In this document: positions 16,474-20,544 of the stretch, piece by piece | Layout: every line of letters starts with the position of its first letter | How positions within the stretch are numbered: the stretch's first letter is position 1 | Assembly (NCBI RefSeq): GCF_030013595.1 | Contig: NZ_CP122768.1 | Length of the DNA stretch: 64,000 nt | DNA from: Escherichia coli | GTDB lineage: Bacteria > Pseudomonadota > Gammaproteobacteria > Enterobacterales > Enterobacteriaceae | Reading direction: 5' to 3' (one strand) | Translations under genes and position numbers: made by a program | The notes under the pieces: model-generated | The model's input: the letters and a program-made list of their open reading frames with translations, nothing else | What the model was told of the DNA's origin: nothing | The model's database searches: none

Positions 16474-18612
16474 ATGACACCGCATGTGATGAAACGAGAC
16501 GGCTGCAAAGTGCCGTTTAAATCAGAGCGCATCAAAGAAGCGATTCTGCGTGCAGCTAAAGCAGCGGAAGTCGATGATGCCGATTATTGCGCCACTGTTG
16601 CTGCGGTTGTCAGCGAGCAGATGCAGGGCCGCAACCAGGTGGATATCAATGAGATCCAGACCGCAGTTGAAAACCAGCTGATGTCGGGTCCATACAAACA
16701 ACTGGCTCGTGCTTACATCGAGTACCGTCACGATCGCGACATTGAACGTGAAAAACGCGGTCGCCTGAACCAGGAGATCCGTGGTCTGGTCGAGCAGACC
16801 AACTCCTCGTTACTCAACGAAAACGCCAACAAAGACAGCAAGGTGATTCCAACCCAGCGCGACCTGCTGGCCGGGATCGTGGCTAAACACTATGCACGCC
16901 AGCACCTGCTGCCGCGTGACGTGGTGCAGGCACATGAACGTGGTGATATTCACTATCACGATCTCGATTACTCACCGTTCTTCCCGATGTTCAACTGCAT
17001 GTTGATCGACCTGAAAGGCATGCTGACCCAGGGCTTTAAAATGGGGAACGCCGAGATTGAACCGCCGAAGTCGATCTCTACGGCAACCGCGGTAACTGCG
17101 CAGATTATTGCCCAGGTCGCCAGCCATATTTATGGCGGCACCACCATTAACCGTATCGATGAAGTGCTGGCACCGTTTGTCACCGCCAGCTACAACAAAC
17201 ATCGCAAGACCGCAGAAGAGTGGAACATCCCGGACGCCGAAGGCTACGCTAACTCTCGTACCATCAAAGAGTGCTACGATGCCTTCCAGTCGCTGGAGTA
17301 CGAAGTAAACACCCTGCATACCGCCAACGGTCAAACGCCGTTTGTAACCTTTGGTTTTGGTCTGGGCACCAGCTGGGAGTCGCGCCTGATTCAGGAATCG
17401 ATCCTGCGTAACCGTATCGCCGGCCTCGGTAAAAACCGTAAAACGGCGGTGTTCCCGAAACTGGTGTTTGCGATTCGCGATGGCCTGAACCATAAAAAAG
17501 GCGATCCGAACTACGACATCAAACAGCTGGCGCTGGAGTGCGCAAGCAAGCGCATGTATCCGGATATCCTGAACTACGATCAGGTAGTGAAAGTCACCGG
17601 TTCGTTTAAAACCCCGATGGGCTGCCGCAGCTTCCTCGGCGTGTGGGAAAATGAAAACGGCGAGCAGATCCACGATGGTCGTAACAACCTCGGCGTGATC
17701 AGCCTGAACCTGCCGCGTATTGCGCTGGAAGCAAAAGGCGATGAAGCCACCTTCTGGAAGCTGCTGGATGAACGTCTGGTGCTGGCACGTAAGGCGCTGA
17801 TGACCCGTATCGCCCGTCTGGAAGGCGTGAAGGCACGCGTAGCTCCTATCCTCTATATGGAAGGTGCTTGTGGCGTGCGTCTGAATGCTGACGATGATGT
17901 TTCTGAAATCTTCAAAAACGGTCGTGCATCTATTTCGCTGGGTTACATCGGCATCCACGAAACCATTAACGCGCTGTTCGGCGGCGAGCATGTTTATGAC
18001 AACGAGCAGCTTCGCGCGAAAGGTATCGCGATTGTTGAACGTCTGCGTCAGGCAGTGGATCAGTGGAAAGAAGAAACGGGTTATGGTTTCAGTCTCTACA
18101 GCACGCCGAGTGAAAACCTGTGCGACCGCTTCTGCCGTCTCGATACCGCTGAGTTTGGCGTGGTGCCGGGTGTGACCGATAAAGGTTACTACACCAACAG
18201 TTTCCACCTCGATGTGGAGAAGAAAGTGAACCCGTACGACAAGATCGACTTTGAAGCGCCTTACCCGCCGCTGGCGAACGGTGGTTTCATTTGCTACGGC
18301 GAGTATCCAAACATTCAGCACAACCTGAAGGCGCTGGAAGATGTCTGGGATTACAGCTATCAGCATGTACCGTATTACGGCACCAATACGCCGATCGATG
18401 AGTGCTACGAGTGTGGCTTTACTGGCGAGTTCGAGTGCACCAGCAAAGGCTTCACTTGCCCGAAATGTGGTAACCATGACGCCTCCCGTGTGTCGGTAAC
18501 TCGCCGCGTGTGCGGATATTTAGGTAGCCCGGATGCACGTCCATTTAACGCCGGTAAGCAGGAAGAAGTTAAGCGCCGCGTTAAACATTTGGGGAATGGG
18601 CAGATAGGTTAA
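16474..18612 (+). CDS. nrdD: Anaerobic ribonucleoside-triphosphate reductase (712 aa)
   Basis: ORF track; C-terminal glycyl-radical region and CxxC Zn ribbon. Confidence 0.97.
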   Translation: MTPHVMKRDGCKVPFKSERIKEAILRAAKAAEVDDADYCATVAAVVSEQMQGRNQVDINEIQTAVENQLMSGPYKQLARAYIEYRHDRDIEREKRGRLNQEIRGLVEQTNSSLLNENANKDSKVIPTQRDLLAGIVAKHYARQHLLPRDVVQAHERGDIHYHDLDYSPFFPMFNCMLIDLKGMLTQGFKMGNAEIEPPKSISTATAVTAQIIAQVASHIYGGTTINRIDEVLAPFVTASYNKHRKTAEEWNIPDAEGYANSRTIKECYDAFQSLEYEVNTLHTANGQTPFVTFGFGLGTSWESRLIQESILRNRIAGLGKNRKTAVFPKLVFAIRDGLNHKKGDPNYDIKQLALECASKRMYPDILNYDQVVKVTGSFKTPMGCRSFLGVWENENGEQIHDGRNNLGVISLNLPRIALEAKGDEATFWKLLDERLVLARKALMTRIARLEGVKARVAPILYMEGACGVRLNADDDVSEIFKNGRASISLGYIGIHETINALFGGEHVYDNEQLRAKGIAIVERLRQAVDQWKEETGYGFSLYSTPSENLCDRFCRLDTAEFGVVPGVTDKGYYTNSFHLDVEKKVNPYDKIDFEAPYPPLANGGFICYGEYPNIQHNLKALEDVWDYSYQHVPYYGTNTPIDECYECGFTGEFECTSKGFTCPKCGNHDASRVSVTRRVCGYLGSPDARPFNAGKQEEVKRRVKHLGNGQIG

Positions 18613-18620
18613 TCCTTCCC

Positions 18621-18653
18621 CCTCACCCTAACCCTCTCCCTCAAGGGAGAGGG
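18621..18653. repeat. GC-rich palindromic element in the nrdD-nrdG spacer
   Basis: cctcaccctaa followed by ccctctccc-tcaa-gggagaggg (9-bp perfect stem). Confidence 0.5.
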
Positions 18654-18796
18654 TACCGTTCCGTGCCCCTTCCTGATTCCCGACATAATGAATTGCCTCT
18701 GGCCAGTTGGTGTCGTCGCAAGGTGGCAAATGCGTAGCATCGGGGGACTTCGCCCGTACGCACCAGAGCAGTCATGGCGTCAATTGAGAATCGAAA

Positions 18797-19261
18797 ATGA
18801 ACTTTCATCAGTACTATCCTGTCGACATCGTCAACGGCCCCGGCACTCGCTGCACACTGTTTGTCTCCGGGTGTGTTCATGAATGCCCCGGTTGCTATAA
18901 CAAAAGCACATGGCGGGTAAATTCCGGTCAGCCATTTACCAAAGCAATGGAAGACCAGATCATTAACGATCTAAATGACACTCGCATCAAACGCCAGGGG
19001 ATTTCCCTCTCCGGCGGCGATCCGCTGCATCCGCAAAACGTGCCGGATATTCTGAAACTGGTACAACGAATCCGCGCCGAATGTCCGGGTAAAGACATCT
19101 GGGTGTGGACAGGCTATAAACTCGACGAACTCAACGCTGCGCAAATGCAGGTTGTTGATTTGATTAACGTACTGGTCGACGGCAAATTTGTGCAGGATTT
19201 AAAAGACCCTTCCCTGATCTGGCGCGGCAGCAGCAATCAGGTGGTGCATCATTTGCGTTAG
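18797..19261 (+). CDS. nrdG: Anaerobic ribonucleotide reductase activating protein (154 aa)
   Basis: ORF track; radical-SAM CxxxCxxC (CVHECPGCYN). Confidence 0.95.
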   Translation: MNFHQYYPVDIVNGPGTRCTLFVSGCVHECPGCYNKSTWRVNSGQPFTKAMEDQIINDLNDTRIKRQGISLSGGDPLHPQNVPDILKLVQRIRAECPGKDIWVWTGYKLDELNAAQMQVVDLINVLVDGKFVQDLKDPSLIWRGSSNQVVHHLR

Positions 19262-19552
19262 TCACTCATCCAGCCGTTTAGTCGCGTCTTCATAAACGGC
19301 TGAGTTCTCTCTCTTACCAATAGCTATCACCAACACGAGCAACTCTTTATCGTTAACCTGATAAACCAGGCGATATCCCTGTGTGCGCAGCTTAATTTTG
19401 TAGCAGTCCGGTAAATCCCGCAGTTTAGCCGATGGATTGCGCGGCCTTTTCAGCACATCCTCAAGCTTTTTTTTAAATTGTTCCCGGACTGTCACGCCCA
19501 GTTTTTGCCACTCTTTCAGCGCCCGCGGATCAAACGCCAGCTCATAGTTCAT
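19262..19552 (-). CDS. RelE/ParE-superfamily toxin (96 aa), RelE-like
   Basis: ORF track 19262..19630 trimmed to MNYELAFD start at 19552; strong similarity to E. coli RelE from memory (DCYKIKLR..GYRLVYQV, KRE near C-terminus); stop codon abuts nrdG stop. Confidence 0.8.
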   Translation of the reverse strand: MNYELAFDPRALKEWQKLGVTVREQFKKKLEDVLKRPRNPSAKLRDLPDCYKIKLRTQGYRLVYQVNDKELLVLVIAIGKRENSAVYEDATKRLDE

Positions 19553-19784
19553 CCAGTCGGACCTTAATGGCCTCTTGTGGGTTGGCCAGTCGTTCCCTGA
19601 CAGTGCGTAACAAGGCTTCTTCACTATCACTGACAGTGAGCGTTTTTACCGGCATTCGTCCATTTTCCGCAACGTACTGAAACAGCAGTCGCCCTGCTTC
19701 AGTAGGCGTGATATTTAATTTTTCCAGCACCGCATAAGCCTCATTTTTCAGTTTGTCATCCAGGCGGACGTTAAGTGTGGCCAT
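19542..19784 (-). CDS. RelB/DinJ-family antitoxin (80 aa)
   Basis: ORF track; ribbon-helix-helix N-terminus resembling RelB; 11-nt overlap with toxin start; ggagg RBS. Confidence 0.8.
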   Translation of the reverse strand: MATLNVRLDDKLKNEAYAVLEKLNITPTEAGRLLFQYVAENGRMPVKTLTVSDSEEALLRTVRERLANPQEAIKVRLDEL

Positions 19785-19809
19785 TATGCCTCCGGTAATT
19801 ATGAAAAGT

Positions 19810-19839
19810 GTAATGCATTATAGCATTACATATGCATTA
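19810..19839 (-). promoter_or_regulatory. Candidate operator/promoter of the TA operon
   Basis: Inverted repeat GTAATGC-N6-GCATTAC plus a third GCATTAC half-site immediately upstream of the antitoxin start. Confidence 0.5.
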
Positions 19840-19975
19840 CATTCATTTCTGGAAAACGCCTCGCAAAAATGAGGACGACACGCAGGAATATGCCGTGGTG
19901 AAGATAGATATTGCGGTGATTTTACGAAGGGAGAAGAAAGCGTTGGGCGGTAACGTTTCACCGCCCAATAAGGAA

Positions 19976-20365
<390 letters not shown>

Positions 20366-20544
20366 TCACTTCCTTTTTTATTTACACTTCATCCTTCACA
20401 CTGCCTCATCGACGGCTACGCTCATTCGCCCGAGTCACGTACTGCGAGTACGCTCCCCGGCCCTCATTCACTTTCCGTCTCGATGCAGTGCGAATGATTT
20501 TGTGTAATTTTTTAGTTTATAGCGCGGCAGGTCGCGCCAGTTTT

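Follow-up and report, generated by a model that had tools for sequence, protein, structure and literature searches.

The palindrome between nrdD and nrdG in this stretch of Escherichia coli DNA belongs to an ordinary solo copy, of type A, of the known dispersed repeat BoxC, which is also called PIT or TMECO. Judged by its sequence, the element has every property by which BoxC/PIT/TMECO copies are recognised. It occupies a spacer that is dimorphic in E. coli, one allele carrying BoxC and ERIC sequence and the other being unrelated and built of REP units. We consider it highly probable that the element is a known passenger repeat in a permissive spacer inside an operon, and not a dedicated regulatory device. 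The features of the locus in the window (the whole 64-kb stretch that was analysed) are as follows.

16474–18612, plus strand: nrdD, anaerobic ribonucleoside-triphosphate reductase, with its stop codon TAA at 18610–18612 (ORF list; RefSeq annotation of E. coli genomes that are 100% identical here).

18620–18653, minus strand: complete BoxC/PIT/TMECO element of type A (exact consensus match; 34-nt identity to K-12 TMECO no. 2).

18620–18628, plus strand: block 1, CCCTCACCC, the third-strand block of the triplex motif (sequence; consensus match).

18631–18654, plus strand: the palindrome proper, a 10-bp RNA or DNA hairpin made of blocks 2 and 3 and one A-U pair, with the loop UCAA (motif search; folding).

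18655–18692, plus strand: linker (about 38 nt) joining BoxC to the ERIC remnant; it is present in one copy and is confined to genomes with the BoxC+ERIC allele.

18693–18797, plus strand: decayed ERIC/IRU of about 105 nt (nhmmer profile, E = 9e-9; alignment).

18797–19261, plus strand: nrdG, activating enzyme, the second gene of the nrdDG operon (ORF list; RefSeq annotation of identical genomes).

The two genes have been described as an operon (PMC2892513, and in a passage of PMC12176259). According to the ORF list the spacer between them extends from 18613 to 18796 (184 bp), and it begins with tccttccCCCTCACCCtaaCCCTCTCCCtcaaGGGAGAGGGtaccgttccgtgcccc... directly 3' of the nrdD TAA. The region 18400–19000 is 100% identical in the strains HCP5S3_I2 and LCP30S3_I5, where it is annotated as nrdD followed by nrdG. 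An earlier, sequence-only reading of this DNA had placed the palindrome CCCTCTCCC-TCAA-GGGAGAGGG at 18632–18653 in this spacer, and both its position and its sequence are as given there. The BoxC element starts 7 nt 3' of the nrdD stop; the order in the spacer is thus the nrdD stop, 7 nt, BoxC type A (34 nt), the linker of about 38 nt, the ERIC remnant of about 105 nt and the ATG of nrdG.

BoxC was reportedly described by Bergler et al. in 1992 and by Bachellier et al. Holder et al. (2015) equated this palindromic E. coli repeat of the 1990s with PIT and renamed it TMECO (PMC4666352); PIT stands for the "potential intrastrand triplex" elements of Hoyne, Maher and colleagues from 2000 and 2002, as related in the same paper. 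The TMECO consensus is 5'-CCCTCNCCC-N3-6-GGGNGAGGG-N3-GGGNGAGGG-3', with a second loop that is either TTA (type A) or CCG (type B) (PMC4666352). This pattern was matched exactly once in the window, on the minus strand at 18620–18653, with 0 matches expected by chance. The minus strand of the element reads CCCTCTCCC-TTGA-GGGAGAGGG-TTA-GGGTGAGGG and the plus strand, which is that of the mRNA, reads CCCTCACCC-TAA-CCCTCTCCC-TCAA-GGGAGAGGG. The second loop is TTA, which assigns the element to type A, and the Watson–Crick stem has no mismatch, so that it is not of the "mm" subtype. A C-rich tract had been described ahead of the palindrome as a feature of its own; the tract is present, at 18620–18628, but because the consensus pattern covers 18620–18653 it is the third block of the element and nothing separate. 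The 9-bp palindrome is made by the two inner blocks.

The core is identical in 34 of 34 positions to K-12 TMECO no. 2 (Table 1 of PMC4666352). We read that copy directly in the hrpB–mrcB spacer of K-12, where it is paired with an inverted copy of type B. The window copy corresponds to the type A half, on the left, of the inverted A...B pairs of K-12 and Enterobacter and, unlike the K-12 copy, it stands alone without a type B partner. K-12 has 23 TMECO copies, always intergenic (PMC4666352), and the window copy is likewise intergenic, lying between the nrdD stop at 18612 and the nrdG start at 18797. The nrdD–nrdG locus of K-12 has no BoxC, so the window copy is not one of the 23; a search of the supplementary files of PMC4666352, which deals with 63 TMECO loci, for nrdD, nrdG and treC gave no occurrence. 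With its exact consensus, its intergenic location and its many relatives, the element itself differs in nothing from BoxC/PIT/TMECO.

When a 53-nt query around the palindrome was run with blastn, the median number of places found per complete E. coli genome was 18 (range 1–33), and in 5293 of 5426 E. coli genomes a BoxC copy covered at least 80% of the query. Genomes that carry the BoxC spacer between nrdD and nrdG contain 11–21 BoxC places each. The sequence-only reading had proposed such a genome-wide search and had named a dispersed repeat among its options without naming the family; the motif is indeed not unique, and the family is BoxC. Within the 64-kb window the palindrome was the sole match even with up to 3 mismatches allowed. 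It was present in 0 of 100 dinucleotide-preserving shuffles, and dozens of near-identical copies occur per genome; both results do away with the notion of a chance palindrome that belongs to no family.

BoxC copies were also found in other genera and on some plasmid records. Holder et al. report no plasmid association for TMECO (PMC4666352), whereas BoxC-like matches were seen here in 280 PLSDB records (113 from Klebsiella, 27 from Citrobacter, 23 from Enterobacter and others), some of which are megabase-sized and may be mislabelled chromosomes. In the 70-kb E. coli plasmid pMTY18781-3 (NZ_AP023208.1) we noticed BoxC copies at 1500–1690, including an A...B composite, between flgH and flgG of a flagellar cluster.

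The RNA hairpin predicted at 18631–18654 has a 10-bp stem and a folding energy of −20.3 kcal/mol (z = −3.5), and 0 of 200 shuffles were equally stable; the fold of the whole spacer is not unusual (z = −1.4). A strong GC hairpin right after a stop codon might suggest an intrinsic terminator or attenuator between nrdD and nrdG. However, a Rho-independent terminator consists of a GC-rich stem-loop with a U-run directly behind it, and here the stem is followed by UACCGUUCCGUGCCCC with neither a T-run nor a U-run. A promoter and terminator scan gave no terminator-like and no sigma-70-like site in the spacer, nrdG thus having no promoter-like site of its own there; the one terminator-like site that the scan did give falls within nrdG and is no more than shuffles lead one to expect. 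As far as PMC4666352 recounts the published tests, the family has no terminator activity. We regard a terminator at this place as extremely improbable, and the earlier remark that the palindrome is not a classical terminator is borne out both by the missing T-run and by those tests.

The composition of the spacer could point to another kind of polarity, in which an untranslated, C-rich and G-poor stretch acts as a rut-like site, recruits Rho and reduces expression of nrdG. The first 80 nt of the spacer do hold 33 C and only 13 G, and 184 nt are untranslated. The hairpin would, however, take up half of the C-rich stretch, no C skew is seen in the remainder of the spacer, and nrdG is needed together with nrdD; Rho loading therefore seems very unlikely. 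The C-rich sense RNA might also be imagined to fold block 1 onto the hairpin as a pyrimidine-motif triple helix that protects a 3' end. For such a helix eight cytosines would have to be protonated at neutral pH, it would contain a mismatched A·A-U triplet, and we give the idea next to no weight.

An Rfam scan of 18300–19100 (E ≤ 10) found no RNA family at its gathering threshold. The best scores were those of CRISPR-DR57 (18.5 bits, threshold 39) and Pab91 (18.4 bits, threshold 71); these two are chance matches to the GC stem and were rejected, as were snoRNA matches, also below threshold. Three small ORFs, at 18688–18882 (plus strand), 18609–18740 (minus strand) and 18641–18880 (minus strand), were discarded because a 5-bp deletion at 18728–18732 in the sub-allele S163-2 shifts the frame of all three.

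For the passenger repeat that we favour, events in the cell might be pictured as follows. Because nrdDG is an operon and the spacer contains no promoter-like site, the element should be transcribed as C-rich RNA, the G-rich strand of BoxC being the template strand of nrdDG. Blocks 2 and 3, co-transcribed with nrdD and nrdG, would form the 10-bp G/C hairpin in the mRNA. Since it lacks a U-run, the hairpin should not terminate transcription; at most it would slow exonucleases that degrade 3'-to-5', to the advantage of the nrdD segment, a role usually ascribed to REP hairpins. REPs have been linked to mRNA turnover, according to a statement in PMC3479197. By analogy with them, the hairpin may have a measurable effect as a barrier to 3'-to-5' decay that favours nrdD, which we think possible but rather doubtful, and any effect on nrdD or nrdG mRNA is conjecture. 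The sequence-only reading had offered a processing or stability element in the nrdDG transcript as its other option, and the analogy with REP makes this plausible at best. Against such an effect speak the in vivo tests of the family, which showed no effect on transcription in the account given by PMC4666352. The elements resemble each other in that both BoxC here and REP/BIME form GC-rich hairpins without a T-run inside operons, and REP units take the same position, behind the nrdD stop, both in the other E. coli genomes that were read and in further Escherichia species. They differ in that the sequences are unrelated, and in that REP is a two-arm palindrome with a known transposase relative, TnpA-REP, whereas BoxC has three blocks and a mobilising enzyme is not known for it.

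The same site was then compared among species. The nrdG loci of 80 Enterobacteriaceae species representatives were fetched, and spacers were extracted for 79 of them. Of the 79 spacers from other species, 25 (26 of 80 with the window) have a complete three-block BoxC 1–28 nt 3' of the nrdD stop, among them those of Kluyvera, Enterobacter, Phytobacter, Pseudocitrobacter, Leclercia, Silvania and Pseudenterobacter as well as Klebsiella spallanzanii, and a second, inverted BoxC is often found near nrdG in these species. Phytobacter diazotrophicus has the layout of the window, a BoxC with TAA and TCAA loops and then ERIC. In E. albertii, E. whittamii and two further Escherichia species the nrdD stop is followed by REP; E. 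whittamii also has an intact ERIC, its last 29 nt being 96.6% identical to the window (28 of 29). The Salmonella spacer contains no BoxC, in agreement with the reported absence of the family from that genus (PMC4666352).

We also surveyed the 74 spacers of at least 50 nt for the strongest 45-nt hairpin within the first 70 nt and compared it with coding control segments. The mean was −19.9 kcal/mol for the spacers and −12.9 kcal/mol for the controls. A hairpin of −15 kcal/mol or stronger was found within 70 nt of the nrdD stop in 61 of the 74 species spacers, and in 49 of the 74 it was stronger than every coding control segment of its own locus. A strong stem-loop directly after nrdD is the rule, whichever repeat family supplies it. 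This could be taken to mean that the hairpin is a selected RNA element, required for the nrdD:nrdG mRNA ratio either as a 3'-exonuclease barrier or as a processing endpoint, with BoxC, REP and other palindromes being interchangeable. The frequency of strong hairpins, the occurrence of BoxC at the site in many genera and in both composite orientations, the REP units at the same site in other Escherichia species and a BoxC core that is unchanged in four E. coli sub-alleles would all agree with it. Repeats, however, are palindromic by nature and pile up in permissive spacers, so that an enrichment of hairpins is expected even without selection. Moreover, six species (from Atlantibacter, Trabulsiella and Cedecea, and one Enterobacter sp.) have an nrdD that overlaps nrdG or abuts on it, as TAATG, TGATG or TAAGTG. 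As six of 79 species have no spacer at all, the repeat-filled spacer and the post-nrdD hairpin are dispensable. Spacers of the Salmonella type lack a strong early hairpin (−8.9 kcal/mol in locus L014), and no effect of the family on gene expression is reported among the tests described in PMC4666352. On balance we consider a selected hairpin unlikely. Somewhat less probable still is the broader proposal that the nrdD–nrdG spacer of Enterobacteriaceae is a constrained niche, in which a post-nrdD hairpin has been selected to uncouple nrdD and nrdG mRNA and repeat families have been swapped repeatedly.

The first BoxC element is C-rich in the sense of the mRNA in 26 of 26 cases; among the composites, 20 are A-first and 6 are B-first. 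This orientation bias was considered as a sign of selection and rejected, as it is explained by the inverted symmetry of A...B together with the loss of right halves in solo copies. Solo copies look like left halves, and right halves in decay are visible in two of the loci (L046 and L059).

In some species the spacer has been multiplied. That of Intestinirhabdus alba measures 902 bp (about 298–1200 of the fetched locus) and contains about five repeats of a unit made of ERIC and the last 45 nt or so of nrdD (...KRRVKHLGNGQIG and the stop). In Silvania confinis and Pseudenterobacter timonensis, BoxC-half units of about 57 bp and about 35 bp, respectively, form arrays. The tandem arrays in these three species may be real products of slippage or artefacts of assembly.

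The rest of the window spacer is also repeat-derived. The sequence-only reading had given about 140 bp between the palindrome and nrdG; the distance is 143 bp, but it is not plain spacer, since most of it is an ERIC remnant. In many spacers of other species the last 130 bp or so are a common segment, ...ttttcgcaaagcaattggcgtcaggacaaggcggcaaacgag-gaatcccggggagcttacataagtaagtgacccgggtgagcgag-agcagccaacgcagtaatggcgtcaattgagaagcgaaaATG. Twelve of the 80 spacers (79 species and the window) keep both standard ERIC-PCR primer sites side by side, which identifies this segment as ERIC/IRU; the primer sequences were those used in PMC3696847. A profile was built for nhmmer from 28 ERIC-like segments of other species' spacers, with the window and its closest relative left out. 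It matched the window at 18693–18797 with E = 9e-9 over model positions 6–132, with an internal gap of about 19 nt in the core, so that the homology extends over the length of the ERIC unit of about 127 bp. The same profile detected an independent copy at 20394–20507 (minus strand) in the cybC–pmbA intergenic region (E = 2e-12), and thus it models a dispersed family. The 3' two-thirds of the spacer align with the ERIC-bearing spacers of other genera. The left arm and the right end of the unit have been kept, about 19 nt of the central core have been deleted, and the right end, ...caattgagaatcgaaaATG, joins the start codon of nrdG directly. Neither the ERIC1R nor the ERIC2 primer site was found in the nrdD–nrdG spacer with up to 8 substitutions allowed. 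With part of the core and both primer sites missing, 18693–18797 was classed as a remnant derived from ERIC, not as an intact element. Blastn no longer connects it with the other ERIC copies of E. coli; a 140-bp query (18657–18796) matched only the orthologous site, in a single copy, in 408 of 5426 E. coli genomes.

The nrdD–nrdG spacer is dimorphic in E. coli. The BoxC+ERIC spacer is present in 408 of 5426 complete genomes and absent from the other 5018, in which only the coding flanks of the query align. The alternative spacers that were read, of 157 bp (K-12 type) and about 189 bp (PD7 type), are unrelated to it and are built of what we take to be REP units, for example GCCGGATGCGGCGTAAACGCCTTATCCGGCCTAC, an assignment made from the sequence, a regular expression and the REP consensus. 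The expression, of the GCCGGATGCGGCG...CCTTATCCGGCCTAC type, had 0 matches in the window spacer, two in the K-12-type allele and more in the PD7 type. In the RefSeq record of K-12 no repeat feature is annotated at this spacer. Switching of intergenic-region alleles occurs in E. coli. The present case resembles it, as two unrelated sequences of similar length (184 versus 157 or 189 bp) segregate within the species between the same flanking genes (408 versus about 5000 genomes); it differs in that both alleles are built of dispersed repeats and are not alternative promoters. The membership of the C-rich tract in the element, the decayed ERIC and the existence of two unrelated alleles had all escaped the sequence-only reading.

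The coding flanks were compared with those of K-12. Against a K-12-like strain, nrdD has 41 mismatches in 2139 nt (1.9%), evenly spread, and nrdG differs from K-12 in 13 of 465 nt (2.8%), likewise evenly, with a single amino-acid change, Y3F. No obvious imported tract was seen in nrdD or nrdG in the comparison with K-12, except for two changes in codons 2 and 3 of nrdG. NrdG begins with MNF in the window (18797–18805) and with MNY in K-12; F3 is found together with the BoxC allele in the four sub-alleles of E. coli that were compared, E69 has Y, and among the species representatives MNY is found in 47 and MNF in 16. The divergent "E. coli E69" representative is the only other lineage among the 79 species spacers with the whole BoxC+ERIC-remnant spacer, which is 92.5% identical to that of the window, the coding flanks being 95.6–97.4% identical. 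No donor species was identified among the 79 species spacers, and other genera share with the window spacer only BoxC, with an identity that reaches 98% over 45 nt in Phytobacter, or, in the case of E. whittamii, the last 29 nt. The minority allele may be an old polymorphism or the result of transfer. In the four E. coli sub-alleles compared the ERIC remnant varies and the BoxC core does not, which could hint at constraint, four being too small a sample.

A second structural variant lies beyond nrdG. About 705 bp (19262–19966) between the nrdG stop and cybC are absent from K-12 and encode a type II toxin–antitoxin pair on the minus strand.

19265–19546, minus strand: toxin of the ParE/RelE family (PF05016, E = 6e-15).

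19545–19784, minus strand: RelB antitoxin (PF04221, E = 1e-14).

This insertion occurs in 454 of the 5426 E. coli genomes; of the 408 genomes with the BoxC allele, 354 have it as well, so that nrdG is flanked by two linked structural variants. Farther on, cybC (cytochrome b562; 19976–20362, minus strand) is an intact ORF of 128 aa in the window, and it is annotated as a pseudogene in the RefSeq record of MG1655.

Between E. coli strains, TMECO loci show more rearrangement than control intergenic loci (PMC4666352), and the link of the dimorphic spacer with a second variant after nrdG fits this reported instability. At the level of DNA, the family's reported link to local rearrangement would likewise fit two unrelated spacer alleles. 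The element might then act as DNA, its G-rich template strand forming a triplex, H-DNA or a G-quadruplex that stalls replication forks and drives the rearrangements behind the two alleles, which would be compatible with a passenger repeat. The stretch GGGAGAGGG-TTA-GGGTGAGGG has four G3 runs. The G-rich strand of TMECO forms an intrastrand purine-motif triplex in vitro, as seen by CD and NMR (Tm 82 °C for type A oligonucleotides), and TMECO loci are hypervariable (PMC4666352). As related in the same paper, PIT elements block DNA polymerase in vitro; they have neither promoter nor terminator activity and leave RNA polymerase unaffected in the work of Hoyne and Maher cited there. The dimorphic spacer with its second indel and the tandem amplification of BoxC-bearing units in Silvania confinis and Pseudenterobacter timonensis point in the same direction. 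In vivo DMS footprinting, however, gave no evidence of a stable triplex in the experiments that PMC4666352 describes, and REP and ERIC at the same site could equally explain the instability, the association being correlative. A role of the element as DNA is therefore, in our estimation, improbable, about as much as that of a selected hairpin.

The passenger repeat that we prefer belongs to a family known since the 1990s, on which studies appeared in 2000, 2002 and 2015, with no function found for it, and the nrdD–nrdG copy adds nothing to what is known of the family. It does change how the locus should be annotated: the C-rich tract and the palindrome make up a single BoxC/TMECO element of three blocks, and what is left of the spacer is an ERIC remnant. 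The side observations, namely the dimorphic spacer, its linkage with the toxin–antitoxin indel and the occupancy of the site by BoxC across genera, are modest and consistent with published views of repeats; the link of the minority allele to the toxin–antitoxin insertion beyond nrdG fits the published picture of rearrangement-prone TMECO loci. The spacer provides a clear example from nature of two unrelated alleles, both built of repeats, that segregate in E. coli (408 versus about 5000 genomes). It offers material for isogenic swaps that could show whether a BoxC and a REP hairpin serve the same purpose in the mRNA of an operon, and if the spacer were indeed a constrained niche, the two E. 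coli alleles would show the replacement of one repeat family by another still under way, with the function staying constant.
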